Assembly (NCBI GenBank): GCA_031254175.1
Contig: JAIRUY010000139.1
Span: forward strand, 1-35,866
Length of the DNA: 35,866 nucleotides
Direction of reading: 5' to 3'
DNA from: Treponema sp.
GTDB taxonomy: Bacteria; Spirochaetota; Spirochaetia; Treponematales; Breznakiellaceae
The notes beneath the pieces were generated by a model. It worked only from the letters and a program-made list of their open reading frames with translations, was not told the DNA's origin and made no database searches. Position numbers and translations under genes: made by a program. Numbering within the stretch: the stretch's first letter is position 1; each line of letters begins with the position of its first letter. Below, in pieces: positions 2,219 through 34,393 of this stretch.

Positions 2219-3334
2219 TTACAATTGTTTTTCCAGTTCTGTAATAAAGTTTTCAGCATCATGGATGCTTTTTCCAAGATCCTTGATAGTATGCTCAAGA
2301 TCGGCTATGCGATCCTTTTTTTCCTGAATTGATTTTTTGTATTTTTCTATTTTGTTTTTTTCTTCATCAATGGAAATGGACGCTCTCAGTTTTCCGATAG
2401 CTTTTTCATTATCAAAAATAGCCTGATTCAATCTGGCAGCCCTGCCGATAGTTTCCCCGTCTTCAGCAGTAACAATGGTATCAATAAAATATTTCCGCTC
2501 AGGCTTGTCAATATCCAAAATCCCTGAAGCCTGCGAGCCGAAATTTCTGTACAGCTTGCGGAGTTCTTCCCTGTTTTCCGTTATGTGATTTTTTATCGTT
2601 TGAATCTGTTTCTGGGGATTACCGTCAATGCCAAATCCGGCGGAAATAATGCGTTTTTCATCCTTTAGTTTTAAAATTTCATCCGCGGCCGAACGTGATT
2701 TTTTACGAAGGTTGTCAATTTCCTCACGTATTGCAGTTACTCCATCATCATGCGAAACAAAACCAAGACTTGAAAGTTGTTCTCCGGCGCTCTGATAAAG
2801 CTGTTCCTGATTTTCCTGCGCCTTTGATAAAAATGATTTCAGCACCAGCCCCTGCGCGCTTTTCCCTATCCACGAAAAAACATTACCTTTCTCCTTGCCG
2901 TCAAGTTCATTGATACGGGCTTCAAGGGATTCAAGTTTTGCCGCAAGAGCATTTGCCTGTTCTCTGAAAGCGGAGGTAGAGTCATTGTAGTCATTGTTTT
3001 CAAGCATAGCCTTGCCCAGCTTCCGGTAAATGCCTGACAATTCCCTTGCCCTTTCTTTTTCTTCCTGTTCTTTTACTTCGATTGATTCCTCAAGTTCCTT
3101 AAAACGGCGGCTCTTTTCTTCCACTCTGGCAATTGCGGCGTTGGAATCGGCTATATCCCGCAGAAGATCATTGTACTGGCTAATATCCTCAAAATTTGCC
3201 TGAAGATCCGTTTCCAGGTTCTTTGAACGGGAATAAAGATTTTCACCAAAGTTTTCCAGCAAAGTGTCCAGTGAACTCCGGTTTTCCTGATTATTCTTTA
3301 AAAGGTCATCTATTCTCTTTTTTCTGTCATCCAT
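2219..3334 (-). CDS. hypothetical coiled-coil protein with internal ~77-aa periodicity
   Basis: 371-aa ORF rich in E/K/L/Q heptads; probably co-transcribed with parE (23-bp gap). Confidence 0.75.
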   Translation of the reverse strand: MDDRKKRIDDLLKNNQENRSSLDTLLENFGENLYSRSKNLETDLQANFEDISQYNDLLRDIADSNAAIARVEEKSRRFKELEESIEVKEQEEKERARELSGIYRKLGKAMLENNDYNDSTSAFREQANALAAKLESLEARINELDGKEKGNVFSWIGKSAQGLVLKSFLSKAQENQEQLYQSAGEQLSSLGFVSHDDGVTAIREEIDNLRKKSRSAADEILKLKDEKRIISAGFGIDGNPQKQIQTIKNHITENREELRKLYRNFGSQASGILDIDKPERKYFIDTIVTAEDGETIGRAARLNQAIFDNEKAIGKLRASISIDEEKNKIEKYKKSIQEKKDRIADLEHTIKDLGKSIHDAENFITELEKQL

Positions 3335-7967: not shown

Positions 7968-8801
7968 ATGGGATTAGTTACCAGCCAGAAAATTTCGGCT
8001 TACTATGAGCGCTTTAAAGATATTTCTGTAACCTTTACCAAAGAAATAATACAGGTTACAGGGCTTTTAACACAGCAAATTCATCTCAAATGCGGAAACG
8101 ATTTTTGGCCGTGTGTAGTCTATGCCGCCTCTTTTGAAAGCGCAAAAGTTGTAGCGAATGTTAAAACAGGACTGCTGGGCAAACTTCAAGCCGCCAATAA
8201 TCTCGTAAGCCTTCGCTTTTGCTTCAGGCCTGCGGGAGAAACAAACGCGGTTACATTTTTTATAGCCGGCCGTGTCCTTGCAAGCGCACCTTACGGCACT
8301 TCTGCGGATGTAAACATGTTTACAATCCAGTTCTCTAACCGGCCGCCCGATGACTTTATTGAAATCATGGGACGTATTCTGGATGCCAATGTAAATTCCG
8401 CCAAACGCAAAGATATGAGGATACCTATAACTGCTGACAGTATGCGCAAGTTAAACATTCTGTCGTCTGAAAGCGCGGTTTTTATTGAAAGAGTCCCGCG
8501 CCGCTGTATTTTAAGGGATCTTTCTTTTTCAGGTTCCAAGATAATAATGATGGGCGTGGCAAAATTCCTGATTGATAAAGATGCGTCATTACGTGTCGAT
8601 TTTAACGACCCCAGAGAAATTTTTACAATTAAGGGAAAGTTTATCCGCGCGGAAGAAGTCGAAGGAAAAAAAGAAATGGTTGCTCTTGGCATACAATTTG
8701 ACGAAGCTCTGGTTCCCATGGGTTACAAAATAAGGCTTAATGATATGCTTTCTTCAACCCGTGCGGATTTCCGCGGCGCATCGGATGAAAATAACCCCTA
8801 A
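7968..8801 (+). CDS. plzA: c-di-GMP-binding PilZ protein, spirochete PlzA type (two-barrel architecture)
   Basis: C-terminal PilZ with RxxxR (RKDMR) and DxSxxG (DLSFSG); N-terminal beta-rich domain; size matches Borrelia PlzA-type proteins. Confidence 0.75.
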   Translation: MGLVTSQKISAYYERFKDISVTFTKEIIQVTGLLTQQIHLKCGNDFWPCVVYAASFESAKVVANVKTGLLGKLQAANNLVSLRFCFRPAGETNAVTFFIAGRVLASAPYGTSADVNMFTIQFSNRPPDDFIEIMGRILDANVNSAKRKDMRIPITADSMRKLNILSSESAVFIERVPRRCILRDLSFSGSKIIMMGVAKFLIDKDASLRVDFNDPREIFTIKGKFIRAEEVEGKKEMVALGIQFDEALVPMGYKIRLNDMLSSTRADFRGASDENNP

Positions 8802-11191
8802 TCAGGTAATACAAGAGCCAAAACTTCTTCAAAACGTTCTACCGGATGGAACTCAATCCCTTTTTTGACATGGACGGGGATTTCATCCAAATCGCGCTCA
8901 TTCTGTTTTGGATAAACAATGTGCTTTGCCTTGTTGCGGCGGGCGGCAACGGTCTTTTCCTTAAGACCGCCAACCGGAAGCACAAGACCTGTCAGAGAAA
9001 GTTCTCCTGTCATCACAAATTTTGGCGTAACGGTTTTTTCGCGCATAAGGGAAAGCAGGGCCGTTGCCATTGTAATACCTGCGGATGGGCCGTCCTTGGG
9101 TGTTGCGCCTTCTGGTATGTGCAGATGAATGTGGTTATTTTCAAACCACCCCTGCTCAACGCCGTAACATCCAACCGCCATTTTGTGCGCGACAGTCATG
9201 GCGATTGTTGCGCTTTCCTTCATTGTGTCGCCCATCTTGCCGGTGAGTGTCAAATCCCCCTTGCCTGGAATTGACGTTGCTTCTATAACTAGGGTATCGC
9301 CGCCCATACTGGTCCACGCAAGTCCAACTGACATTCCGGGTCTGTCCGCCTTCTTTACATCCCCTTCGGGGAAAATAGGTTTACCAAGATGTTTCTCAAT
9401 TTGTTTTTTATCAATGGAAAAATTTACCGGTTTGGCTTTTTTCCCTTTTGCCGGCGCCTTTGCGGGTTCTTCTTCAGTATCTAACATACCAACAATCTGC
9501 TTTGCAAGTTTGCGATGTATTTTGTCAAGGTTTTTTTCAAAATTACGCACGCCGGCTTCGCGGGCATAGGCGTTTGCGATGTGTAAAAGACTGTCCTTGG
9601 TATATTTAACCTGATTTTTTTTAAGACCGTTTTTTTCAAGGCTTTTGGGCAGAAGGTACTGTTTGGCAATTTCCAGCTTTTCTGTGTCAATGTAACCTGG
9701 AAGCTGGATGATCTCCATACGATCCATAAGCGGCACAGGAATTGTATCAAGAGTATTTGCCGTAACAATAAAAAATACATTGGAAATGTCAAACGGCAGA
9801 TCAAGGTAATGATCCCGGAAAGCATAGTTTTGTTCAGGATCAAGCACTTCCAGAAGAGCGCTTGCAGGATCGCCCTGATGACTTGTTCCCATCTTGTCGA
9901 TTTCGTCTATCATAAATACCGGGGCTTTTGTTTTAACGATTTTCAGCCCCTGAATAATTTTCCCCGGCAGCGCTCCGATGTAAGTCCGTCTGTGGCCTTT
10001 GATTTCCGCTTCGTCTCTCATGCCGCCGACAGAAAAACGGAAAAACTCTTTTCCAAGAGAGCGAGCTACTGATTTTCCAACCGATGTTTTTCCGACACCG
10101 GGCGGCCCGACAAGGCAGACAATCGAACCTTTTGTGTCCCCGCGCAATTTCCTGACCGCAAGATATTCAACAATCCGCGTTTTTACATCCTCCAGTCCGT
10201 AATGATCCGCTTCAAGGATTGCCTGCGCTTCCTTTAAACTGAAAGTTTCCGGCGCGGGATTACCCCACGGAAGGGCCGCAATTACGTCAAGATAGTTGCG
10301 CGTAACGGTAAACTCGGCGGAATTGGGTTCCATCAGGCTGAATTTTTCCAGTTCCTGCTCGACAACTTCCTTAATCTCGCCTTCAAACTTAAACGCTTCA
10401 AACTTTTCCTTAAAACGCTGGTAATCAGAACTCTTTGCATCGGTTGTCATGCCAAGCTCTGTTTTTATTGCCTTTAGTTCTTCTTTCAAGAAATAGTCAC
10501 GCTGCGATTTTTCAATTTTTTCGTTTATCTCCCGCTGAATTCTTTTCTGAATGCGCAAAAGTTCCTGTTCTTTTTTTATAAACACCAAAACCTGTTCCAT
10601 ACGCTTTCGGACATTCAATATTTCAAGTATCTTCTGCTGTTCAGCTTTGTCAATGTTAAGAATGCTCGCTATAAAATCCGCTATTTTTCCGGGATGATCA
10701 ATATTGATCATATTAAGCCGCATTTCTTCAGAAAACAGAGGATTGTTTTCGCTGATCTGTTTCATCTCGGAAATCAATGCCCGCGTAAGAGCCTTAACCT
10801 CACTTGTGCCGTCTTCTTCTTCCTCAAGATATTCGACTGCTGCAACAATTGGATTTGTTTCATTAAGTGTTTTCTTTACTCTGAAACGCTTGAGGGTAGA
10901 AATAAAAATGTTCACGCCGCCGTCCGGCAGATTGATTTTTTTAACAATTTTAGCCGCCGTCCCTACTTTGTATAAATCGGTGATGGAAGGATTTTCAATT
11001 TCATTCAGCAGCATCACAAGCCCTACAAGACCGTCACCGGCAACAGCATCATCAACAACTTTTACGTCAGTCGGATTGCCTATCATGATAGGCGTAAAAA
11101 TTCCGGGGAAAATCGGCCGTCCCATAAGAGCGACAAGGTGCAGTTTGTTCGGCAGAAGCTGATCTATTGGAATAATACTTTTGTCTGACAC
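8798..11191 (-). CDS. lon: ATP-dependent Lon protease
   Basis: GPPGVGKT, IDEIDK, HRRTYIGA, PKDGPSAG (catalytic Ser), GGLKEK; GTG start after AAGGAG. Confidence 0.97.
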   Translation of the reverse strand: MSDKSIIPIDQLLPNKLHLVALMGRPIFPGIFTPIMIGNPTDVKVVDDAVAGDGLVGLVMLLNEIENPSITDLYKVGTAAKIVKKINLPDGGVNIFISTLKRFRVKKTLNETNPIVAAVEYLEEEEDGTSEVKALTRALISEMKQISENNPLFSEEMRLNMINIDHPGKIADFIASILNIDKAEQQKILEILNVRKRMEQVLVFIKKEQELLRIQKRIQREINEKIEKSQRDYFLKEELKAIKTELGMTTDAKSSDYQRFKEKFEAFKFEGEIKEVVEQELEKFSLMEPNSAEFTVTRNYLDVIAALPWGNPAPETFSLKEAQAILEADHYGLEDVKTRIVEYLAVRKLRGDTKGSIVCLVGPPGVGKTSVGKSVARSLGKEFFRFSVGGMRDEAEIKGHRRTYIGALPGKIIQGLKIVKTKAPVFMIDEIDKMGTSHQGDPASALLEVLDPEQNYAFRDHYLDLPFDISNVFFIVTANTLDTIPVPLMDRMEIIQLPGYIDTEKLEIAKQYLLPKSLEKNGLKKNQVKYTKDSLLHIANAYAREAGVRNFEKNLDKIHRKLAKQIVGMLDTEEEPAKAPAKGKKAKPVNFSIDKKQIEKHLGKPIFPEGDVKKADRPGMSVGLAWTSMGGDTLVIEATSIPGKGDLTLTGKMGDTMKESATIAMTVAHKMAVGCYGVEQGWFENNHIHLHIPEGATPKDGPSAGITMATALLSLMREKTVTPKFVMTGELSLTGLVLPVGGLKEKTVAARRNKAKHIVYPKQNERDLDEIPVHVKKGIEFHPVERFEEVLALVLPD

Positions 11192-11213: not shown

Positions 11214-12026
11214 TTATCTGGAATACATTTCATTCAGAATATACTGTACAAATCTTTTCGGCAATATTCTGTTTAGCAGCATAAATAACTTGTACTTAAA
11301 TCCTATTGTATACAACGGCTTGGGGTTTTTACAACAGGCTGCCTTGTAAATTACTTCGGCGGTTTTAATCGGAGACATTCCGCTGCGTTCATCCTTTTCC
11401 ATTAATTCAATAGATCGTAAAATACGACTGCCGTAATCGGGATCGTCATTTATAAAAGCCTTCTCTCTTGAATCTGTAAATGAGGTCTTAGTATCTCCGG
11501 GCAGAATTGTTGTCACTTTGATATTAAAAGGCAAAAGTTCACCCCGCAGGCAATTCGAAAGCGCCTCCACTGCGGCTTTGCTTGCTGAATAAAAAGCCTG
11601 AAACGGCACATGCATTGAACCGGCAACAGAGCCGATGTTTATTATTTTTCCGCCGCCGCAGGAACGCATATACGGCGCTGTACATTTTACTGCTTCAAAC
11701 ACTGTAAAAAAATTGAGTTCAAAAAGACGCCTTGCGTCATCAGAAATGGTTTTTTCCACAGAGCCGGAAATGCCTGCTCCGGCATTGTTAACCAAAACAT
11801 CAATGCGTTTTTCTGTTTCAAAAATATCATCAATATTTTTTTTCAGCGCTTCTTTGTCTGCAACATCACAAACAAGCGATTTTACGCCCGGAATAACGCA
11901 GGCGCTTCTGGAAAGATTATAAACAACATAACCCTTATTTAAAAAAAGCTTGGCAGTTGCAAAGCCGATACCTTTTGAAGCGCCTGTAATAATTACCACT
12001 TTTTTTTCTGTCATAAGCCTATTCAC
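11214..12026 (-). CDS. short-chain dehydrogenase/reductase (classical SDR)
   Basis: TGASKGIG, NNAG, YSASK catalytic motif; 18-bp gap from the upstream fusion gene; the start may be ATG 12014. Confidence 0.9.
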   Translation of the reverse strand: MNRLMTEKKVVIITGASKGIGFATAKLFLNKGYVVYNLSRSACVIPGVKSLVCDVADKEALKKNIDDIFETEKRIDVLVNNAGAGISGSVEKTISDDARRLFELNFFTVFEAVKCTAPYMRSCGGGKIINIGSVAGSMHVPFQAFYSASKAAVEALSNCLRGELLPFNIKVTTILPGDTKTSFTDSREKAFINDDPDYGSRILRSIELMEKDERSGMSPIKTAEVIYKAACCKNPKPLYTIGFKYKLFMLLNRILPKRFVQYILNEMYSR

Positions 12027-12044
12027 ATAACAACCGGGATTTTG

Positions 12045-15000
12045 TTATTTTGGTAAAACTATATTCATTTTTTGGGCTAAATCTTCCAATATATCAAGGG
12101 CAGCCGTTATTTGTTCCTTTTTGTGGCAGCTTGTCAGACAAAAACGCAAACGCGCCTTGTTTGCGGGTACTGCAGGATATACTGCCGGAGGAACTGAAAT
12201 ACCTTTTTCAAAAAGCGCCGCTGAAAGATCAAACGCATCCGATTCCTTTCCTACAAGAATTGGAACAATCGCGCTTTCTCCGGCAAGACACAAATTAAAG
12301 CCTCTTTTTTTTGCTTCCGATGTAAAGCATACAATGTTTTCATGAAGCCGGCGCACAAGAGAATTGTCTCTTCTGACAATCCGTATTGCCGCAAGCGTTG
12401 CCGCGGCAAGCGCGGGACTTAAACCCACAGAAAAAACAAAACCGGGCAGCGTATATTTAAGATATTCTATCATGGATTTTTTTCCGGCAAGATATCCTCC
12501 GCATGTTCCAAGACCTTTTGAAAGCGTTCCCATTTTTATGTCAATGTCATCCGGATTCAGATTGAAGTATTCATCAACACCTCCGCCGTTTTTTCCGATA
12601 ACACAGCTTGAATGCGCTTCATCTACCATCAGAAAGAGGCCGAATTCTTTTTTTAATTTGACAAATTCAGGCACGGGAGCGATATCGCCGTCCATGCTGT
12701 ATGCGCCTTCAATTATAAGCAGAACTTTTTCAAATTTATTGCGCATTGATTCCAGCATTGCTCTTGCGGTTGTAAAATCGTTGTGGGGAAAAGCTCTGCT
12801 TGTCGCTTTGCTCAAACGCAGACCCTGAATTACTGAATTATGTGAAAGAATATCGTATAAAATCAAATCTTTTTCATTACAGAAATTTCCGACAAATGTA
12901 ACGTTTGTCGAATGACCGCCGACAAGCACTAAAGCCGCTTCTGTTTTTTTCCATTCTGCAAGTTCAGCTTCAAGCTGGCGGTGCAGTGTTTTTTCTCCTG
13001 CCAAAAGCCGGCTGCCGCTGGCAGAAGTCCCAAGTTTGTTAATCGCATCAATTGCTGCCGCAGAAACTTCACTGTGACCGCTTAATCCCAAATAATTATA
13101 TGAAGCAAAATTAAGAACATCTTTTCCGTCTACTGTTGAAACATCACGCAAAACGCTGTCATAACTTATAAAATACGGGTTTTTTGTTTTATCAACCGAT
13201 TCCAGACGGGCAGCCAACGAAGCGTACTCAGGCGTGTCTTCAAAACGGGTTATCGGCTTTACGTCATCTTTTTTGGTCACTATTTGTTTTTCAAACGCTG
13301 TTCCATTGAGTTTTTCATAAATAAGACGGCTTACATCGTCAGCTGTCACGCATTTGTAATATTCCGACTCATCAATCATTATGCCGAATTTGGATTCAGC
13401 CATTGCGAGCAGTCCAAGACTGTCCAGGCTGTCGCCGCCAAGGTCGTAAATAAAATGTTTGTCAACGGGAATTTGCGCTGGATCCAGATGCAAAACATCC
13501 GCAAAACATTGCACTACCTGTTCCCTTATTTTAAGGAATTGATCGTCAATGCCCGGTTCTTTGCGCATAACAGCAGCTTTTGCCGCTCCAATTATTGCCA
13601 TGCCGGAATATTCATTTAAATTGAGTTCTGACGAAGAAAAAGTTTTGTTTTCAAGCAGTTCTTTTAATTTTTGACGGCGTACTTTTATTCCGTTGGCAAG
13701 CGGCATTGGCTCGTTTGCAACATAAACCTTTCTGATTTTTTTCATTACCGGCAATTGAGTGTTTACATCATTTATGGATTTAATAATATCCTTGAATCCC
13801 TGTTCAGACCGTGCGGTATCCTGCACCTCAAGAACAATGCCGATATCATCACTGCCGCCGGCATTAAGGCCAAGAATACAATACCTGTCAACCATCGGTA
13901 AATTGTCAAACATATCTTCGAGTTCATCAGGATAAATATTCTCTCCGGCTTCATTCAGAATAACTTCCTTCAGGCGCCCTTCAATAACAAGAGAGCCTTT
14001 TTCAAAACGGCCGATGTCGCCGGTATGAAGCCAGCCTTCACTGTCAACGTCAGAAGAAACCATCTGGCCATTTTTCATTTTTCCTATATGCATTGAAGGA
14101 CTCTTAACAAGAAGTTCTCCTGTTCCTGCTTCTCTCCCGTCAGCATCAATAATTTTACTTTCAAACCCGTACATAAGCGGCCCTGTAGAACCGTCAATGC
14201 GGCGTTTAAATACCGACCCCGGTTCAAACGCAATAATTCCGCACTCTGTCATTCCGTACCCGATAGTCGCGCAGTGTCCCAGTCCGTTCATAAATTTTAA
14301 CGACTCAACAGGGACATGGGTTCCGCCTACACAAATCCAGGCAAATGTATCACCGAACAGTTTTTTTATTACAGATTTTGTTATATATCTTCTCGCAAAA
14401 ACATCTCCGTTTTTTGGAAAAACATTCTGTATTGAACTGGAGATATTCAAAAGCATTTTTAGCAATTTTTCCTTTTTGGGAGTTTCCTGCCGCACCTTGC
14501 GCCACACGCCGTTTTTCAGGTTATTAATAAGCAGAGGCACCGAGACCATGTGCGTTACGCCAATTTTCTGGCAGGCTGCCTGTATTGAAGCTGGAGACCT
14601 GTCTTTCAGATAAACGATGGTTTTACTAAGAAACGGATAAGCAATACACAAAGTAATAAACCCCAGAACATGGTGCATTGGCAGAAAAGCCAACGGTTTT
14701 ACCGGAGTAGGCGCTGAGGCAATGCGTTTGTCTTTGAGATAAACTTTATAAAATCCTTCAAGCTGGCTTGAAATGGCGCTGCCGTCAAAAACAAGCACTT
14801 TTGCGGTTGCTGTTGTCCCAGAAGTGCATAAAGCAAGCTGGTCAGCCCATTTGGGAGAATATTCATGTTTTTCTTTTTGCGATTTTAATTCGTCAAGTGA
14901 AATTTGCTGAACATTGTTTTTTAACGCAAGACCAGATTTGCCGACAATTGACTTTAACCCGGCACATTCGATAATGTAGTCAACCATTTCTTCTCTTTGA

Positions 15001-15323
15001 TTTACGTCAATGAGCACCGGTTTGAATCCCGCCATCAATAACGCCCAAAAACAAGTCTGCCATAAATGGCTGTTTTCCATTGCAAAGCCGACAAAGCAGC
15101 CGCGCTGGTTTTCTCCAAGCCTTTCTGTCAGAAATCCTGCCATGCTTCTTACTTTTTCATTCAATTCACCAAACGATATTGAAACTGTATTTCCGTTTTC
15201 ATCAAGCCATTGACCTGCGGGCGTATCCAGAGAATCGCCCATCATAATGTCATAGATATTTTGCATTGTTTTTGGGTTATCCAGCAAACGAACAAAGCGG
15301 TTTTTTACAGTATCATTTTTCAT
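12045..15323 (-). CDS. tri-domain fusion: acyl-adenylating (ANL) domain + acyl carrier protein + PLP-dependent alpha-oxoamine synthase (BioF/SPT/KBL family)
   Basis: ANL motifs TSGTT, GYGMTE, WLHTGDIG, GRLKE...GENIYP; ACP motif LGGDSL; AOS motifs SYNYLGL, SHNS, YSMDGD, DEAHS, GTLSKG (PLP Lys), LRF. Confidence 0.9.
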   Translation of the reverse strand: MKNDTVKNRFVRLLDNPKTMQNIYDIMMGDSLDTPAGQWLDENGNTVSISFGELNEKVRSMAGFLTERLGENQRGCFVGFAMENSHLWQTCFWALLMAGFKPVLIDVNQREEMVDYIIECAGLKSIVGKSGLALKNNVQQISLDELKSQKEKHEYSPKWADQLALCTSGTTATAKVLVFDGSAISSQLEGFYKVYLKDKRIASAPTPVKPLAFLPMHHVLGFITLCIAYPFLSKTIVYLKDRSPASIQAACQKIGVTHMVSVPLLINNLKNGVWRKVRQETPKKEKLLKMLLNISSSIQNVFPKNGDVFARRYITKSVIKKLFGDTFAWICVGGTHVPVESLKFMNGLGHCATIGYGMTECGIIAFEPGSVFKRRIDGSTGPLMYGFESKIIDADGREAGTGELLVKSPSMHIGKMKNGQMVSSDVDSEGWLHTGDIGRFEKGSLVIEGRLKEVILNEAGENIYPDELEDMFDNLPMVDRYCILGLNAGGSDDIGIVLEVQDTARSEQGFKDIIKSINDVNTQLPVMKKIRKVYVANEPMPLANGIKVRRQKLKELLENKTFSSSELNLNEYSGMAIIGAAKAAVMRKEPGIDDQFLKIREQVVQCFADVLHLDPAQIPVDKHFIYDLGGDSLDSLGLLAMAESKFGIMIDESEYYKCVTADDVSRLIYEKLNGTAFEKQIVTKKDDVKPITRFEDTPEYASLAARLESVDKTKNPYFISYDSVLRDVSTVDGKDVLNFASYNYLGLSGHSEVSAAAIDAINKLGTSASGSRLLAGEKTLHRQLEAELAEWKKTEAALVLVGGHSTNVTFVGNFCNEKDLILYDILSHNSVIQGLRLSKATSRAFPHNDFTTARAMLESMRNKFEKVLLIIEGAYSMDGDIAPVPEFVKLKKEFGLFLMVDEAHSSCVIGKNGGGVDEYFNLNPDDIDIKMGTLSKGLGTCGGYLAGKKSMIEYLKYTLPGFVFSVGLSPALAAATLAAIRIVRRDNSLVRRLHENIVCFTSEAKKRGFNLCLAGESAIVPILVGKESDAFDLSAALFEKGISVPPAVYPAVPANKARLRFCLTSCHKKEQITAALDILEDLAQKMNIVLPK

Positions 15324-15370: not shown

Positions 15371-15407
15371 AAAGAAACAGGGCTGCCCAATAACCGGACA
15401 GCCCTGT
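15371..15407 (-). terminator. intrinsic terminator of eno
   Basis: Minus strand ACAGGGCTGTCC-7 nt-GGGCAGCCCTGT followed by TTCTTT. Confidence 0.85.
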
Positions 15408-18015: not shown

Positions 18016-18462
18016 ATGGATTATATGATCACTGAAAAAGAAAAAGACGGAGATATTTACTATTATGTTAAATGGTCTCCTCTTGTCACTGCCGACCGGT
18101 GGGAAATAAACGCAAAAGTCCCTTCGGTTGCCGGAATTTATGAAATATACTGGATGGACGAAAAAAAACGCCTGCGGATGTTTAAAGTAGGACGAACAGA
18201 TTACGGCGGGCTAAGAAGCGAGATTCGCCGTCTTACCGATCCCGAACTGTGTTTTAATGATGAAAAAGGCAAAAAAATACTGGAAGAAAAAGAAATATAT
18301 TTCCGTTATACCTGCAACGATTCCGCCAATGTAATGGCTGATATTCTATGGTTCCTCTTGTCAACATATTTTCCGGAAGATACTCATGAGCCGCATTCCG
18401 GGCGTCACAATGAAATTTATGTTAACCAATCCGCGCCTGACCAGCTAATTTGGGTACCTTAA
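18016..18462 (+). CDS. hypothetical protein, possible degenerate GIY-YIG fold
   Basis: 148-aa ORF; PSVAGIYEI...FKVGRT...LRSEI pattern; extended -10 TGaTATAAG 6 nt upstream. Confidence 0.7.
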   Translation: MDYMITEKEKDGDIYYYVKWSPLVTADRWEINAKVPSVAGIYEIYWMDEKKRLRMFKVGRTDYGGLRSEIRRLTDPELCFNDEKGKKILEEKEIYFRYTCNDSANVMADILWFLLSTYFPEDTHEPHSGRHNEIYVNQSAPDQLIWVP

Positions 18463-19299: not shown

Positions 19300-20850
19300 A
19301 TGGCTAAGAATAAATGGCTGAAGCTGGTCTTTTCAAGAAGAACTCTTGTTATCTTTACCCTTCTTGCACAAATATTCCTTACCATTTTTATTGTGGCCAG
19401 CACAAGTATGTATTTAAAATATTCATACTGGTTTCTTATTTTTTTAAGCGTCATTGTCTGCATTTACGTAATTAATAAACGTGAAAAGGCCGGTTATAAA
19501 CTTACATGGATTTTCATCATTCTGTTGTTCCCGATTTTTGGAGGAGTTTTATATATCCTGCTTAATTTCTGGTCTAATCCGAAAAAATTAAGAAGATCAA
19601 TTGATCGCAACATAAGAGACAGCCGGGAGGCTTTTCATCTTCCGGGAAACTGTTTTGATGAATTGATAGATTCTCATCCGGACTTTAAAACCCAAGCGCA
19701 TTACCTGCAGAAATATGCCGGCTTTCCGGTTTACGGTAATACAAAACAGGAATATTTGCCCTCAGGAGAAGCGTTTTTTTACAAAGTGATGGAAAAAATG
19801 AAAAAAGCCCAAAAATATATCTTCCTGGAATTTTTTATCATAAAAGAAGGGATGATGTTTAATTCAATTTTAAAGATACTGGAAATGAAGGCCGCCGAAG
19901 GTCTTGATATCCGGATAATATACGATGATCTCGGCTGTTTTTTTACCCTTCCGCCTGATTTTCGGGACAAACTGGACATGAAAGGAATTAAAACTTTTGT
20001 TTTTAATCCGTTCAGGCCGATCGTTTCTTCTTTGCAGAATAACCGCGATCACAGAAAAATTATTTCGATTGACGGAAAAGTCGCATTTACAGGCGGACTA
20101 AACCTCGCTGATGAGTATATCAATGTCGTGGAACGTTTCGGGCACTGGAAAGATTCAGCTGTGATGCTTGAAGGAGACGGAGCGTGGTCTTTAACCCTCA
20201 TTTTCCTGCAAATGTGGAACCTGAGCACAAAAGAAAAAGATGATTATTCTGTTTTTTATTCCGGAGAAGAAAGGGAAGAACACACAGATGAAGAATTAAA
20301 AACGTGGGGTTATGTACAGCCATACGCGGACAATCCGATTGACGTTGAAAATGTCGGAGAACATGTTTACATTCAAATAATAAATCAGGCAAAAAATTAT
20401 GTTTATATCAATACGCCTTATCTGATTGTAGATGACAACCTGTTGTCAGCGCTCATGCTGGCTGCAAAAAGCGGAGTGGATGTACGCATTATTACCCCGC
20501 ACCGGTGGGATAAATGGATAGTCGCAATTACATCCCGCTCATATTATATGCGGCTTATTCAGGCAGGCGTGAAAGTTTATGAATATACATCCGGCTTTAA
20601 TCACGGAAAAACATTTGTCTCTGATGACAAAATCGCCACTGTCGGAACAACCAATCTGGATTTCCGCAGCCTGTATCTTCACTTTGAATGCGGTGTGTTA
20701 ATTTATTCAAGCAAAACGATAATGGCAATTAAGGAAGATTTTCTGGAAACAATGCCTTCATCAAAAGAAATGACAATCAAAGACTGTGCCAAGAATTCTT
20801 TCCAGCGGATTATTCAGGATTTACTGCGTATCTTCGCTCCATTGATGTAA
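19300..20850 (+). CDS. cls: cardiolipin synthase
   Basis: N-terminal TM helices; two HKD motifs (HRKIISID, HGKTFVSD); NLDFRS; extended -10 TGaTATAAT at 19282-19290. Confidence 0.92.
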   Translation: MAKNKWLKLVFSRRTLVIFTLLAQIFLTIFIVASTSMYLKYSYWFLIFLSVIVCIYVINKREKAGYKLTWIFIILLFPIFGGVLYILLNFWSNPKKLRRSIDRNIRDSREAFHLPGNCFDELIDSHPDFKTQAHYLQKYAGFPVYGNTKQEYLPSGEAFFYKVMEKMKKAQKYIFLEFFIIKEGMMFNSILKILEMKAAEGLDIRIIYDDLGCFFTLPPDFRDKLDMKGIKTFVFNPFRPIVSSLQNNRDHRKIISIDGKVAFTGGLNLADEYINVVERFGHWKDSAVMLEGDGAWSLTLIFLQMWNLSTKEKDDYSVFYSGEEREEHTDEELKTWGYVQPYADNPIDVENVGEHVYIQIINQAKNYVYINTPYLIVDDNLLSALMLAAKSGVDVRIITPHRWDKWIVAITSRSYYMRLIQAGVKVYEYTSGFNHGKTFVSDDKIATVGTTNLDFRSLYLHFECGVLIYSSKTIMAIKEDFLETMPSSKEMTIKDCAKNSFQRIIQDLLRIFAPLM

Positions 20851-20876
20851 TCGGGCAATTTTTATTATATTTATGT

Positions 20877-21998
20877 ATGGCAAGTATATTCGATTATTTA
20901 ACATGGAGAGGCGATCTGGATTTTAATCAGTCTCCGCCAAACCCCGTTGATTATGCTATATTCTCCCAAATATCCTACCTTCCATTTGACGGCATCGTTC
21001 CCGGTCCGGGTGAAAAAGAAGGGATCAGCCTCTATCTTGCCTTAAACGCATTGATGAAAAAACTTGAAAACAACAAACATGCGAAAAAGCCGGTATTTAT
21101 GTTCAGGGAAGATCCAGATTTTATCACCGCTCTTGCCTCTTCAAATCGTTTCAAAAACTGCCATCTTATCGGTTACGTTAATCATATAAATGCTGAACGG
21201 CAGATTCAGTTTTCCGCGGTATGCGTAAATACAGGAGACGATTCCTTCTCAGTAATTTTCCGCGGAACGGATTTGTCGTTTGTAGGATGGAAAGAAGACT
21301 TTAACATGGCTTTCAGCGAAATAATTCCCTCTCAGATTGAAGCGGTAAAATATCTGGAAAATATGGCAACCATGGTAAAAGGAACGTTACGCATCAGCGG
21401 TCACTCAAAAGGCGGAAATCTCGCTGTTTTTTCCGCATCGCGCTGCAGCAAAAACATTCAAATGCGTATAACAGATATTTACAGTTACGACGCGCCCGGG
21501 TTTCACAGAAAAGTTTTCGACAGCGAAGGTTATTCTTCCATTAGAGACAAAATACATTCATATATCCCGCAAACATCCATTGTCGGCATGGTTCTGGAAC
21601 AAGGCTGTGATTATACAGTAATTCGAAGCTCTGAGACCGGCCTTATGCAGCACTCGCTCTTTTCCTGGGATGTAACCCATAACGATATGATTCATGTTGA
21701 TGATGTTTCTGTAGGCAGCCGCTTTGTGGACAAAACATTAAAGGAATGGCTTGGCAGCCTTGATAATGACCAGCGTGAAAAGTTCATTGAAGCTATTTAT
21801 GCAATTTTGAGCAAATCAGAAGTAAAATCAATTAACGAACTTGAAAGCTCGTGGTTAATATCTGTGGGACGGATAATGAAATCTCTCGGCGACATTGATG
21901 CATCTACAAGAAGATTAATCCTGAATACAATTGCAGAGCTGTTCCGTTCTGCAGGGCGTAATATTGACACCTTGTTTAACAGGAAAACCAGTGATTAA
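20877..21998 (+). CDS. DUF2974/Mbeg1-like alpha/beta hydrolase (putative lipase)
   Basis: DYLTWRGDL, FRGTD...GWKEDF, GHSKGG nucleophile elbow, DAPGF. Confidence 0.85.
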   Translation: MASIFDYLTWRGDLDFNQSPPNPVDYAIFSQISYLPFDGIVPGPGEKEGISLYLALNALMKKLENNKHAKKPVFMFREDPDFITALASSNRFKNCHLIGYVNHINAERQIQFSAVCVNTGDDSFSVIFRGTDLSFVGWKEDFNMAFSEIIPSQIEAVKYLENMATMVKGTLRISGHSKGGNLAVFSASRCSKNIQMRITDIYSYDAPGFHRKVFDSEGYSSIRDKIHSYIPQTSIVGMVLEQGCDYTVIRSSETGLMQHSLFSWDVTHNDMIHVDDVSVGSRFVDKTLKEWLGSLDNDQREKFIEAIYAILSKSEVKSINELESSWLISVGRIMKSLGDIDASTRRLILNTIAELFRSAGRNIDTLFNRKTSD

Positions 21999-28088: not shown

Positions 28089-28301
28089 AACAATTCAGTG
28101 TAAACTATTCCCTCACATTATTCCAGTAAACTTCTCCCACAAAGCTATGTATCAATTATAGAAAATAAGGCCATTTGTTGCATAAAACAATAGTTTTTAT
28201 AGATGCCCAAAATTTGGAAAAATAATATTTTTTTCATAAAAAGGATGTATTTTGGCCACTTTGTATTATTTATATTTTACTCAGATAAGGAGAGAAAATA
28301 T

Positions 28302-29504
28302 ATGTCTAAATTACCAAACATTATTCAACGTCGTGAGTTTGAGCCTCTGATGCTAAAGGCTTTTAAATTCGCAAGACATTATGAAAAAGCTGCAAATTGC
28401 GTTGTTTCTGTTATGGGATCAAATTATGATAACGCCTCCAATCAATTTGATGATATTTGCAGAAACTGCAAAAGAAAAACCATCGGCTGCTCAGAAAAGG
28501 TATGCGCAATTTTACACAAGAAAGCCGTAAACGAAGCAAGGCAAACCGGAGGCTCACACATATATATTTGTTCCGAAGGTTTGGCTTTCTGGACAAGTCC
28601 CTTTTATTCAGGCGAACGTTTTGCCGGAGCGTTTGTTTCGGGCGGCATTACGGTGAAAAACAACAGGAAGGTAAAAGCCCTTGCCAATATGATGCTGATC
28701 TGCGCAGATCAGCTGTCCAGCATGAGCAATAAAAGAAAAAATATCACAACGCAAACGGATAATTTAAAATTCACGTCACAATCACCTGAAACAGGCGGTA
28801 ATGAGAGTGATAAAAGAGCCGAAAATCCGGCTTGCTCAATAGACATGGAAAGGCTGTTATTGGCAAACTTGCGCCGCGGGGACATTGTCGAAGCTGAAAA
28901 AATGCTTCTTTGTTTAATAAACGCCTGTTATCAGGAAGTACAGTGCAATTTACAGGCTTTCCGCATGAAAGCCATGGAATTTGCAGTTTTATTATCCAGA
29001 GCGGCAATAGAAGCCAACGATATAAGCGATGAAATTGTCTTTGAAGCAAACAATCTTTACTTAAATAAAATTGAAAAAAGTCCAAGTCTTCAGGAAATAA
29101 CGAAAATTCTTCTGTGCATCATAAAAAAAATGTCGGGAATATTTTTCTCGTTTCACGGAGTAAGGCATTTTCCCGCGCTCAGAAAAGCTGAACGTTACAT
29201 CATGAATAACTATACAAGAAAACTCAGCCTGAATGAAATCGCGGATGTTTCGGGACTTTCCGCTCCCTATTTCAGCACAATTTTTAAGGAAGAAATGGGA
29301 GAGAATCTGTCAAATTATCTTAACCGGCTTAGAACAGAAAAAGCGGCGACGATGCTCGTTACGACAAATATGTCAATAAGCGAGATAGCAAAAACATGCG
29401 GTTTTGAGGATCAGAGCTGGTTCTCAAAAATTTTCAAAAGCAACACCGGGCAGAGCCCTGGAAAATACCGTGAACAGGGAAGTTTTTCCGGTATATCAGC
29501 ATAA
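28302..29504 (+). CDS. AraC-family regulator with N-terminal PocR-like sensor domain
   Basis: C-terminal double HTH (LSAPYFSTIFKEEMG...GFEDQSWFSKIFK...SPGKYR); N-terminal H..A..EA..GG..IY.C..G; ATG 28302 after TAAGGAG. Confidence 0.88.
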   Translation: MSKLPNIIQRREFEPLMLKAFKFARHYEKAANCVVSVMGSNYDNASNQFDDICRNCKRKTIGCSEKVCAILHKKAVNEARQTGGSHIYICSEGLAFWTSPFYSGERFAGAFVSGGITVKNNRKVKALANMMLICADQLSSMSNKRKNITTQTDNLKFTSQSPETGGNESDKRAENPACSIDMERLLLANLRRGDIVEAEKMLLCLINACYQEVQCNLQAFRMKAMEFAVLLSRAAIEANDISDEIVFEANNLYLNKIEKSPSLQEITKILLCIIKKMSGIFFSFHGVRHFPALRKAERYIMNNYTRKLSLNEIADVSGLSAPYFSTIFKEEMGENLSNYLNRLRTEKAATMLVTTNMSISEIAKTCGFEDQSWFSKIFKSNTGQSPGKYREQGSFSGISA

Positions 29505-29517
29505 AAAGAGGGAGATT

Positions 29518-30948
29518 ATGAAAGAAAACAAAACCAAAACAAACGAACAACAGGAAGAACTGATAAACAAAGCAATGAAAATGATGCTGGATTACAATCA
29601 GGCCACCGGCTGCAGTATTTGCATTTACGACAAGGATTATAAACCTTATGCCCCCATGGGCATTGAATGCTACCCGGAAAAAACTATTTGCAGGCACTGC
29701 AAAAACAATCAGCCGGGACACGAACCATGTCATGAAATGCACATAAACGCAATAAAAGAAACAAATAAAACCGGCGGGTTTCATATTTATAAATGCGCTC
29801 TTGGTTTCCTGTTTTGGGTCAGCCCAATATATACCGAAGGCAGTTTCTCGGGGGCAATCAGGGGCGGCGGGTTTCTGGCAGAAACCGATGCCGGCGAAGT
29901 CAAACCGTCAGGCGACACTTCATCACATCAAAACCTTCTCCGGTCCGGAAAAAAAACAGTTGACATTTATTCAAATGCCAACGATACTCTTGTTATGTGC
30001 ACAGACGACATATCAAAGGAAGACTTTAAGGGGCACATTAATTCATCTCCCAGAGCAGACGAAGAAAAAGCGCAATCTCTGGCGGAGATGATGCAACTGT
30101 GCGCGGAATCATTAAGTTCCGGAAGCGAAGATTATCATGAAACAATCAAAAGAAGGGCTGAACAGCAGGATACAATAGTAAAAATAATTGAAAATCTAAA
30201 GAGTCAGCACAATGAAAACGTGGAAAAGCCCGGTTATCCGCTGGAAAAAGAAAAAAATTTGATGTCTGCCCTTCGTAAAGGCGATGCCAATGAAGCAAAA
30301 AAACAACTGAATGAACTTTTGGCTATGGTATTTTTTTCATATCCGGGACAGTTTAAATATATACAATTACGGATAACAGAGCTTGTTATACTCATCTCCA
30401 GAGTGGAAATCAGTCCTGTTAAAAGCGGAAATCTTTCCATGGAAATAAACAGTCAAAACCTGAAATTTGTCCAGGAAGCCAAAAGCATTGAAGAGTTAAC
30501 TGATATTATTCATACCATCGTAGATCGCGTGACCAGCGTAATATCTTCTTTCCGGGGTATCCCGCATGCCGCAGCGTTAAGGAAAGCGGAAAATTTCATC
30601 CTTGAAAATTTTACAAGGAAAATCAGCCTGAAAGAAATCTCCGCTGTAGCAGGTCTTTCTCCTCCTTATTTCAGCACAATTTTTAAGGAAGAAATGGGGG
30701 AAAACCTTTCGAAATACCTTAACAGACTGAGGGTGGAAAAGGCCAGCCGCCTGCTGCTTGAAACAGATATGTCGCTCAGCGAAATAGCCGCCTGCTGCTG
30801 TTTTGAAGACCAAAGCTGGTTTACAAAAATATTTAAGGCTTACATTGGCATCAGCCCCGGAAAATACCGCAATCAGGGCGGCGGATTTGTCAGGGATAAC
30901 AGCGATGACAACGGTTCGCAAGCATTACGCAAAATCCAGAAGAAGTAG
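29518..30948 (+). CDS. AraC-family regulator with PocR-like sensor domain (paralog of the upstream gene)
   Basis: Same architecture, near-identical HTH region; ATG 29518 after GAGGGAG. Confidence 0.88.
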   Translation: MKENKTKTNEQQEELINKAMKMMLDYNQATGCSICIYDKDYKPYAPMGIECYPEKTICRHCKNNQPGHEPCHEMHINAIKETNKTGGFHIYKCALGFLFWVSPIYTEGSFSGAIRGGGFLAETDAGEVKPSGDTSSHQNLLRSGKKTVDIYSNANDTLVMCTDDISKEDFKGHINSSPRADEEKAQSLAEMMQLCAESLSSGSEDYHETIKRRAEQQDTIVKIIENLKSQHNENVEKPGYPLEKEKNLMSALRKGDANEAKKQLNELLAMVFFSYPGQFKYIQLRITELVILISRVEISPVKSGNLSMEINSQNLKFVQEAKSIEELTDIIHTIVDRVTSVISSFRGIPHAAALRKAENFILENFTRKISLKEISAVAGLSPPYFSTIFKEEMGENLSKYLNRLRVEKASRLLLETDMSLSEIAACCCFEDQSWFTKIFKAYIGISPGKYRNQGGGFVRDNSDDNGSQALRKIQKK

Positions 30949-32400: not shown

Positions 32401-33516
32401 ATGATAGTAGGAACAGTAAAAGAAGTAAAAAAGCACGAATACCGGGTAGGTTTAACGCCGAAAGCGGCGGAAGCCTATAAAAACGCAGGGCATACCGTTT
32501 TGGTGGAAAAAGGCGCCGGTGAAGGCGCCGGTTACACTGATGATCAATACGCGGCGGCGGGAGCAAAACTTATGCCTTCCGCTAAAGACATTTGGGCTGA
32601 TGCCGGCATGATAATAAAAGTAAAAGAGCCTCTGGAAAACGAATACGCCCTTATTCGTGAAAATCAGATTTTGTACACATATTTGCATCTGGCTTCTGAC
32701 AAGCCGCAGACTGAGGCTCTGCTCAAATCAAAGTGCATAGCCATTGCTTACGAAACTATCCGGGACAACAAAGGGCAGCTTCCCTGCCTTAAGCCGATGA
32801 GCCAGATAGCAGGCCGTATGGCCATTCAGGAAGGAGCAAAATACCTCGAAAAACCGATGGGCGGCAGAGGCGTGCTTCTTTCCGGCGTGCCCGGAGTTCC
32901 TCATGCGGAAATTGTCGTTCTGGGGGCGGGCATTGTAGGCGCAAGCGCGGTAAAACTGGCAGTAGGTTCGGGTGCCCACGTTACGGTTGTCGATTTAGAC
33001 CTTGACAAACTCAGTTATCTTGAAGATCTTTATGACAGCCGCATTACAACACTTTATTCTACCCCTGAAAATATTGAACAAATCCTGCCCTTTGCCGATC
33101 TGGTTGTTGGAGCAGTGCTTATTCCGGGTTCTGCCGCGCCAAAACTTATTCGTAACAAACATTTATCAATGATGAAAAACGGATCGGTTATAGTGGATGT
33201 TGCGATAGATCAGGGCGGCTGCAGCGAAGCAAGCCATATCACCTACCATGACGACCCGGTCTTTATAAAAGACGGCGTAATAAATTATTGCGTAGGCAAT
33301 ATGCCCGGCGCTGTGTCCTATACATCAACCAACGCTCTTGGCAACGCAACACTGCGTTACGGTTTGATGATTGCGAATACAGGCCCCGAAGCTGCGCTGA
33401 AACAAGATTCAGGCCTCTTGGATGGATTAAACATTTACAAGGGAGCAATTACCTACAAAGGCGTTGCCGAAGCCCACAATCTTTCTTATACTCCCGCACT
33501 TGAGGTAATTAGGTAG
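32401..33516 (+). CDS. ald: alanine dehydrogenase
   Basis: KEVKKHEYRVGLTP, KVKEP, YLHLA, GAGIVG, VDVAIDQGGC, NMPGAV. Confidence 0.96.
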   Translation: MIVGTVKEVKKHEYRVGLTPKAAEAYKNAGHTVLVEKGAGEGAGYTDDQYAAAGAKLMPSAKDIWADAGMIIKVKEPLENEYALIRENQILYTYLHLASDKPQTEALLKSKCIAIAYETIRDNKGQLPCLKPMSQIAGRMAIQEGAKYLEKPMGGRGVLLSGVPGVPHAEIVVLGAGIVGASAVKLAVGSGAHVTVVDLDLDKLSYLEDLYDSRITTLYSTPENIEQILPFADLVVGAVLIPGSAAPKLIRNKHLSMMKNGSVIVDVAIDQGGCSEASHITYHDDPVFIKDGVINYCVGNMPGAVSYTSTNALGNATLRYGLMIANTGPEAALKQDSGLLDGLNIYKGAITYKGVAEAHNLSYTPALEVIR

Positions 33517-34393
33517 CAGTTACCTCTTCCTCTTTATCTTCAGTTTCCTCAACAGGGGTTGGGGTTATAGTCTTTTTCTCAGAAAAGAGCCAATTGCCGG
33601 TTTCATCTATATACTTCCTGACAATGGCGACATGAATATCAGTCCCCGTCTTATCAGTTTCTCTTTTCCAAAGACTTGCGTTTTTTATTGATTTAACAAC
33701 TCGTTTTTTGCCATTTTCGGCAACAGAACGGCACTTTTCCGGATTTTCCGAGTGGTTTGCCAGAGAACTGTCAAGAAAATAGGCTGAAAGAGCGGAAATA
33801 AGAGCATTATTTGAAAAAACGGCCAGCGATAAAAATTCAGGTTCTGCCGCATTAAAATCGCTGCCAAGCAGTTTGGAAAAACCGTAATACCAGCGTATCC
33901 ATTGATTTTCTTCACCCTTCCCTTTCTCAAAATATGTTTTAAAAAATTCGGCTGCTTCCCTGTAGCCGCCGCTTAAAACTCTGGCAGCGCCAAAAATCAG
34001 GATATTTTTTTCTACAACTATGGGTTTTGCATTTAAAGTCTTGGTTTCCAGCGTTAAAACAGAATTAAAATCTGACATTACAATATAAGAACTGGCCAAA
34101 AGTTTTACCTTCCGGGTACTATATTTGAGTTTTCCATAGATTTGTTGTTCCAGATAATAAGCAAGAGCAGGCCAATCTTCTCGTTCAAGAAGTGAAAGAA
34201 GCCGATAATTAGAAAAGAAAAACACACAAACGGCGGCAAGGAGCAAAACCATGAAGATCAGGAGCGGTATAGTTATAAACTGTAAGTTTGCCGCAAATTC
34301 AGGTCCTGCCAGCAGTCTCGGCAGAAGAATGGCCGCAAACACCACAATTATTAATATAATGCTAAATACAGTTATCAGATATTTGAACTTCAA
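33509..34393 (-). CDS. hypothetical membrane protein (2 N-terminal TM helices, helical/TPR-like C-terminus)
   Basis: 294-aa ORF, TTG start after GGGAG; 8-bp convergent overlap with ald. Confidence 0.75.
   Translation of the reverse strand: MKFKYLITVFSIILIIVVFAAILLPRLLAGPEFAANLQFITIPLLIFMVLLLAAVCVFFFSNYRLLSLLEREDWPALAYYLEQQIYGKLKYSTRKVKLLASSYIVMSDFNSVLTLETKTLNAKPIVVEKNILIFGAARVLSGGYREAAEFFKTYFEKGKGEENQWIRWYYGFSKLLGSDFNAAEPEFLSLAVFSNNALISALSAYFLDSSLANHSENPEKCRSVAENGKKRVVKSIKNASLWKRETDKTGTDIHVAIVRKYIDETGNWLFSEKKTITPTPVEETEDKEEEVTAT

Follow-up and report, generated by a model that had tools for sequence, protein, structure and literature searches.

Does a treponeme carry a single enzyme that activates a fatty acid, loads it onto itself and turns it into a sphingoid base? 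This question is raised by two adjoining genes at positions 11,214 to 15,323 of a 35,866-nucleotide stretch of Treponema sp. DNA (contig JAIRUY010000139.1, assembly GCA_031254175.1), the whole of which was analysed and is called the window below. The first gene encodes a fusion of an ANL adenylation domain, an acyl carrier protein (ACP) domain and an α-oxoamine synthase (AOS); the second codes for a short-chain dehydrogenase/reductase (SDR). We conclude that the pair is real and intact, and that it most likely represents an uncharacterised way of making sphingoid bases. The order of the domains, their catalytic residues, the positions in the trees and the linkage of the genes were observed directly. 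Judged from the sequences, the fusion is likely a self-loading serine palmitoyltransferase (SPT) of the kind represented by SgaB, and the SDR is predicted to turn what the fusion makes into a sphinganine-type base by reduction; the pair would most likely work like SPT plus KDSR, outside the canonical SPT and KdsR families as these are bounded by model cut-offs. That some long-chain amino alcohol is the product appears quite probable, and the narrower proposal of self-loading sphinganine-type synthesis from serine and a long-chain acid, with reduction by the SDR, is favoured with somewhat less confidence.

The fusion gene (12045..15323, minus strand) is an open reading frame (ORF) of 1092 residues in which three Pfam domains, each above its cut-off, follow one another: AMP-binding (45-411), PP-binding (601-668) and Aminotran_1_2 (734-1078). 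This bears out the initial annotation, which had placed ANL, ACP and AOS on one polypeptide. The ANL domain (residues 1 to about 567; 13620..15323, minus strand) is acyl-CoA-ligase-like and carries the usual motifs (P-loop T167-T171, GYGMTE 355-360, TGD 434-436) and K547, all of them invariant or nearly so across 88 aligned sequences. An AlphaFold model of residues 1-680 (pLDDT 87.5), together with Foldseek, confirmed the ANL-carrier fold, with a flexible linker at 573-590. In the ACP domain (residues 601-668; 13320..13523, minus strand) the phosphopantetheine serine of the GGDSL motif is S632, whose AGC codon lies at 13430-13428 and which is invariant in the same 88 sequences. The AOS domain (residues about 690-1092; 12048..13256, minus strand) has its pyridoxal phosphate (PLP) lysine, in GTLSKG, at K936 (codon 12518-12516), and H828, D901, H904, K936 and R1060 align with SPT, ThAOS and KBL structures as the signature of the AOS family; Y742, S771 and V966 were marked as further residues of interest. 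Both the carrier serine and the PLP lysine had been called intact in the initial annotation, correctly so. Since 118 of the 119 homologues listed besides the query, among 909 protein-search matches, carry the same three Pfam domains, a chance or frame artefact is excluded. Most of the stretch is covered piecewise by contigs of a termite-gut run, possibly the very sample it came from, and no indel is listed in the fusion, which no single contig spans; assembly artefact as the source of the fusion was rejected. No RNA data set was listed among the runs that match the stretch. In two other loci (L043, L063) the fusion is broken into two frames by a frameshift or an assembly error, with the SDR still upstream.

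Which member of the AOS family is this? All our trees were quick trees with midpoint roots; the AOS references were annotated BioF, 2-amino-3-ketobutyrate CoA ligase (KBL), 5-aminolevulinate synthase (ALAS), SPT (E. coli B, Sphingomonas, Bacteroidales), SulA-like proteins and AOSs linked to polyketide synthases (PKSs) or fatty acyl-AMP ligases (FAALs), with PfSgaB itself, RedL, SxtA and CqsA outside the sample. The AOS of the fusion falls in a clade of 35 rows, mostly clostridial and treponemal (support 100), whose sister clade is that of the PKS-/FAAL-linked AOSs (support 99 in one tree and 100 in another), where proteins of the SgaB, RkpG and WcbT kind belong. A phylogeny against BioF, suggested with the initial annotation, set the domain apart: forcing it together with four BioF references was rejected in an approximately unbiased (AU) test (p-AU 1e-52). 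PfSgaB is, according to PMC12134224, a proven SPT which makes 3-ketosphinganines and prefers L-serine almost exclusively over alanine and glycine. The sister-clade protein of locus L135 nearly matches PfSgaB, as printed in the supplement of that paper, at nine motif blocks and in the AOS-to-SDR locus-tag spacing, and was therefore taken as its stand-in. When the motif set was compared by eye with PfSgaB, the query shared its Tyr (Y742, at the position of SulA Asn53), Ser (S771) and Val (V966).

Two of these positions separate the fusion from other AOS families. V966 lies 30 residues after the PLP lysine, at the position of SulA K281, and among the homologues this residue is Val in 116 of 118 and Ala in the other two. 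Canonical SPTs have Ala there; the shared Val would show that this residue is compatible with serine use. The second, S771, corresponds to V79 of ThAOS, which according to PMC11906848 is Ser in SPT and in AONS (8-amino-7-oxononanoate synthase), Val in KBL and Thr in ALAS. The query agrees with SPT and AONS, and KBL and ALAS form clades of their own; a KBL/ALAS identity was rejected.

The partner gene (11214..12026, minus strand) encodes a classical SDR with a GxxxGxG motif at 15-21 and the triad S133, Y146 and K150. If it starts at GTG 12026 it follows the fusion stop after 18 bp, as the initial annotation had stated; an ATG at 12014, which would leave a gap of 30 bp, is the likelier start, being the better fit to the lengths of two treponemal homologues. 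Among 219 NCBIfam models KdsR (NF049977) matched best, at 236 bits, and the SDR is 41% identical to a KdsR that passes the cut-off. It shares a clade with KdsR (support 92, inner forks unresolved) that also holds SDRs encoded next to SPT in Bacteroidales, next to SPT-like genes in Clostridia and next to a SulA-like gene. For SDRs beside or near members of the fusion's AOS clade, KdsR was the best NCBIfam model in 23 of 25 cases and the second in the remaining two, and other models were best for all three unrelated SDRs of the same loci. A PDB sequence search with the SDR returned generic SDRs only. Its R40 suggests a preference for NADP(H), by a general rule for SDRs.

Is the SDR a true partner? 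From 80 loci we drew 36 full-length non-treponemal fusion loci and counted SDRs by tblastn. Seventeen of them have a KdsR-like SDR next to the fusion (16 upstream, 1 downstream), as do all three treponemes, where it occurs in two orientations, head-to-head with the fusion in the two other treponemes. Conservation of the SDR link across genomes, on which the initial annotation had depended, is thus supported. Where no adjacent copy exists, 19 of 20 carriers (19 with full-length loci and one cut by the contig end) have a KdsR-like SDR elsewhere, including 17 of 17 Bacillota. Among genomes lacking the fusion such an SDR is present in 49 of 249 Clostridia (about 20%) and in 12 of 215 members of the host's family. 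The best argument for reduction of a 3-keto long-chain base is that this SDR subfamily stands beside AOSs of four separate branches. A Bacteroides-type SPT-like gene adjoins the SDR in 6 of 12 background clostridial loci, which were picked by hand and are mostly high scorers. In these pairs (L169, L170, L171, L174, L175, L179) the SPT-like gene is directly beside the KdsR-like SDR and reaches 535-560 of 640 bits in the three that were scored; they are candidates for a second, canonical-type sphingoid system.

What feeds the AOS? The ANL domain lacks the FAAL insertion, with 78 residues between A5 and TGD against 105-114 in AasR and three FAALs, and FAAL models are outside its leading matches; on spacing and model scores an AasR/FAAL identity was rejected. 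Of the references it was compared with, an ANL-ACP didomain adjoining PlsC-like acyltransferases matched best (E 7e-53); a thioesterase-like gene flanks five loci, and DegV genes lie near some carriers. It is from gene context alone that we infer fatty-acid use. Such didomains were seen in three genomes of the genus (L101:6240-10928, L102, L103) with a PlsC-like acyltransferase, a hydrolase and a DXD glycosyltransferase, and with FakA/DegV in L103; this may be an acyl-ACP-fed lipid cassette. The initial annotation had explained the ligase by the scavenging of fatty acids, and this rationale has lost ground. The source genome (G000, 83% complete) encodes fabH, fabD, fabG, fabF, free ACP, AcpS, accC and accD (fabZ and enoyl reductase lay outside the check). 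With genes of type II fatty-acid synthesis (FAS II) and acetyl-CoA carboxylase (ACC) present, the genome gives no impression of fatty-acid auxotrophy, which was rejected as the rationale. The ligase would instead channel free fatty acid into the route, as is argued for AasR in PMC9386255.

The pathway may then run as follows. A phosphopantetheinyl transferase (PPTase) encoded elsewhere, probably the AcpS-type enzyme found on contig C112 of the source genome, would prime S632, and the ANL domain would adenylate a free long-chain fatty acid and load it onto the ACP in cis. The AOS, presumably a dimer like other AOSs, would condense the acyl-ACP with L-serine, with loss of CO2, to give 3-ketosphinganine, whose ketone the SDR would reduce with NADPH. 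The base might stay free or be N-acylated, in the latter case by an agent different from the bacterial ceramide synthase (bCerS) already described. The core of the initial annotation (activation of the acid, loading in cis, condensation, reduction by the SDR) is upheld in computation by the non-BioF AOS and the conserved SDR link; cysteate, which it had listed among the substrates, is disfavoured because the SulA lysine is absent.

A number of results weigh against this proposal. Forcing the AOS together with canonical SPT was rejected (p-AU 7e-126), and all curated SPT models score under their cut-offs (NF047600 300/640, NF047599 272/500, NF047603 214/670 bits). The top NCBIfam match of the fusion is bioF (347/426 bits), above the best SPT score. 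Identity between the query AOS and the stand-in for SgaB is just 43%, at which distance the Tyr/Ser/Val positions do not prove serine use, and the amino-acid choice of AOSs is poorly predictable. The ANL domain shares at most 20% identity with any solved structure and gives no substrate signal. The SDR misses the KdsR equivalog cut-off of 400 bits, and 19 of the 36 loci have no adjacent SDR, four of these being cut off no more than 800 bases away on one side. About 20% of the Clostridia that lack this AOS have a KdsR-like SDR, and this share is a minimum because no more than nine candidates were scored in any genome; the carriers are partly kin, so the SDR enrichments are overstated. No Sfp-size PPTase was found in the source genome or in treponeme G023, and a second bCerS-like query, with a positive control, found no homologue in any of four carriers including the source genome.

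We therefore have to ask what else the pair could make. With L-alanine or glycine as the amino acid, the same self-loading route and reductase could yield bases of the 1-deoxy- or 1-deoxymethyl-sphinganine type. V966, like the Thr that BioF and ALAS have there, is a beta-branched residue, and no head-group or bCerS gene is linked to the fusion, both of which fit such a product; it is nevertheless improbable, since PfSgaB with the identical Tyr/Ser/Val set rejects both amino acids and S771 differs from the Val/Thr of glycine-using enzymes (PMC12134224, PMC11906848). Much the same low probability is given to a small aminoketone or amino alcohol, a signal or secondary metabolite and not a membrane lipid, made from a short, branched, aryl or other non-fatty acid. 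Fold and sequence searches ranked aryl-, malonyl-, o-succinylbenzoate (OSB) and fatty-acyl ligases about equally for the ANL domain, and the patchy distribution, with three genomic contexts in three treponemes, would suit a product of that kind; the KdsR-like partner, the lipid-gene neighbours and the long-chain SPT in the sister clade speak for a lipid.

It is very unlikely that the product is the lipid anchor of a capsular polysaccharide, as is proposed for RkpG/RkpH and WcbT/WcbP. The initial annotation had drawn this comparison, and one half of it survives: the AOS is sister to the clade with the capsule-cluster AOSs L116 and L135 (presumably RkpG and WcbT, names that we assigned from gene context), and both systems pair an AOS with an SDR. 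The other half fails, because the SDR is only 27% identical to RkpH-/WcbP-like SDRs and lies outside their branches, unrelated to them beyond the SDR fold. The fusion locus has neither PKS nor capsule genes; no capsule or export gene occurs in the window or among recurring neighbours, no iterative PKS lies beside the AOS in the window, and the sole ketosynthase match in the genome is FabF.

A fused pimelate ligase and BioF serving biotin synthesis, with the SDR incidental, is slightly less credible still. It would account for the bioF match and for the fact that some sources auto-name homologues 8-amino-7-oxononanoate synthase; ACC genes, whose product depends on biotin, are also in the genome, where a search for BioY found none. 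The bioF match is uninformative, since that model is also the top scorer for PKS-linked AOSs and RkpG-like proteins. Besides the rejected grouping with BioF, bioB and bioD are absent from the source genome as far as it is complete, bioD is absent from five of five other carriers, and no bio gene is found among recurring neighbour clusters. The statement that no bio gene or PPTase lies nearby held across the 29 window ORFs scanned with Pfam. Capnine, a sulfonolipid made from cysteate, can be set aside: AOS plus SDR also marks its synthesis and another genome of the genus has a SulA-like gene accompanied by a related SDR, but the diagnostic lysine, K281 (PMC9304779), is Val in the fusion and SulA-like proteins form a separate clade, for which reasons a SulA/CapB cysteate acyltransferase was rejected. 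That other genome has three consecutive genes, for a SulA-like AOS with Lys at the K281 position, for the related SDR and for a glyoxalase-fold protein (L100:127-3284, G016:C32), candidate sulfonolipid genes in a spirochete.

Returning to the sphinganine-type reading, we compared the locus with described systems. PfSgaABC of Pseudomonas fluorescens MYb115 (PMC12134224) has in common with it the sister AOS clade (via L135), the Tyr/Ser/Val positions and a linked SDR for which ketosphinganine reduction is proposed; its chain is built by an iterative PKS and its AOS is a separate protein, whereas here a ligase-ACP is joined to the AOS in place of the PKS, the AOSs are about 43% identical and the SDR belongs to a different subfamily. 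The passage of a free fatty acid via a dedicated ACP to an AOS has a precedent in AasR/AcpR/Spt of Caulobacter and E. coli B (PMC9386255). That system consists of three genes with a FAAL-like AasR; ours is one chain with a non-FAAL ANL and an AOS outside the Spt clade, and neither bCerS nor CerR was matched in the source genome with E. coli B YghO or CerR queries. By analogy, the fusion is best described as a one-chain equivalent of AasR, AcpR and Spt from non-orthologous parts. With Bacteroides SPT plus KdsR (BT_0972; NF049977; PMC9278070) the locus shares the SDR's best model, the broad SDR clade and, in two Bacteroidales loci, the order AOS then SDR; the SDR scores well under the cut-off and the condensing enzyme is non-orthologous, with its own ligase and ACP. 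Uncharacterised, widespread planctomycete fusions (L069-L093) have the same domain order and AOSs 46-50% identical to ours, but with a true FAAL domain, so that they are likely independent, and with a KdsR-like SDR in only 3 of 12 genomes. One such gene is flanked by a bCerS homologue (L072:9628-10755). Our literature search, with most subscription papers outside its reach, found no description of an ANL-ACP-AOS fusion or of treponemal sphingolipids.

How did the fusion reach a treponeme? The most probable host is a Treponema of the termite gut: 75% of the words sampled from the stretch are present in a termite gut metagenome, and of the 38 homologues at 66-79% identity six are named Treponema sp. 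Those at 45-51% identity are labelled mostly Clostridia. In the host's family the AOS is carried by 3 of 218 genomes (near-complete genomes alone: 2 of 56), each time in a different gene context; among sampled Clostridia it is carried by 1 of 250, the carrier used as sampling centre. A full-length tree of 42 chosen rows placed nine treponemal-type proteins (100) as sister (100) to a group including Oscillospiraceae-labelled proteins, the two together lying inside Bacillota branches (97, 96). Because the treponemal copies nest among Clostridia and so few family genomes have them, transfer from (gut) Clostridia is likely, with the reservation that the root is a midpoint and bin labels can err. 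The GC content of the cassette is 0.42 for the fusion and 0.40 for the SDR, and at third codon positions 0.37 and 0.36, against 0.40-0.49 in seven other window genes; so slight a difference does not clearly point to recent transfer. The same clade also includes AOSs that stand alone and ACP-AOS forms, so the fusion is not obligatory.

The initial annotation knew of no sphingoid synthesis in spirochetes, yet genes resembling SPT are common there. SPT-like genes of at least 500 of 640 bits (500-608; e.g. L185, L186, L187) are present in 61 of 401 Spirochaetota genomes, none above the cut-off, and the three tested proteins, standalone and of Bacteroides type, group with SPT in the tree. The sphingoid potential of spirochetes is therefore wider than this locus, which, unlike those standalone genes, is likely a clostridial import.

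One lead concerns N-acylation. In treponeme G013 an E2/CAT-fold acyltransferase-like gene (PF00198) and then a long-chain acyl-CoA ligase lie directly behind the SDR; in the source genome (C90:1570-2457 and the next gene, L195) and in G023 the two stand as a pair away from the fusion. All 3 treponemal carriers have the E2/CAT-fold gene, against 3 of 37 further genomes in the genus; outside the treponemes it is present in 33 of 36 carriers, against 92 of 251 Clostridia. It is a lead only, since the protein lacks the usual catalytic His motif (Glu stands there in five homologues) and the gene is frequent in genomes that lack the fusion. A full ceramide pathway of a non-canonical kind in gut anaerobes, with fused SPT and KdsR-like SDR making sphinganine, the E2/CAT-fold protein and ligase N-acylating it in place of bCerS, and the set moved from Clostridia to termite treponemes, both groups being sphingolipid producers missed by Spt/bCerS/CerR screens, is a speculative and rather unlikely extension.

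If the sphinganine-type reading is true, sphingoid bases, lipids of a kind known to act on animal hosts, are made in gut Clostridia and in some termite treponemes by single-chain, fatty-acid-fed synthases. The fused ligase would be a third supply route beside the acyl-CoA/AasR and PKS routes, a single protein would catalyse the whole conversion of free fatty acid into a long-chain aminoketone, and an N-acylation step not yet described would be indicated. Searches for sphingolipid-making bacteria depend on the canonical Spt, bCerS and CerR and set any AOS beyond the Spt clade aside as unrelated (PMC11334938); that survey spans 38 phyla, and Spirochaetota or Bacillota may be among them. Cultured carriers, with homologues named Clostridium thermarum and Clostridium sp. 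19966, make the reading directly testable.

A terminator-like hairpin of 14 pairs (15377..15407, minus strand; a consensus match only) would close the enolase gene and set it apart from the cassette. A promoter scan upstream of the fusion gave a 9-of-12 site at 15339-15312, which is within chance. The lon protease gene (8798..11191, minus strand; ORF and Pfam) begins 22 bp after the SDR and is possibly co-transcribed with it in the source genome; it is no neighbour of the cassette in the two other treponemes. Elsewhere in the window three ORFs (2219-3334, 18016-18462, 33509-34393) have no Pfam match, a cardiolipin synthase gene is followed by an Mbeg1-like (PF11187) gene at 19300-21998, and two PocR-sensor AraC regulators stand in tandem at 28203-30948.

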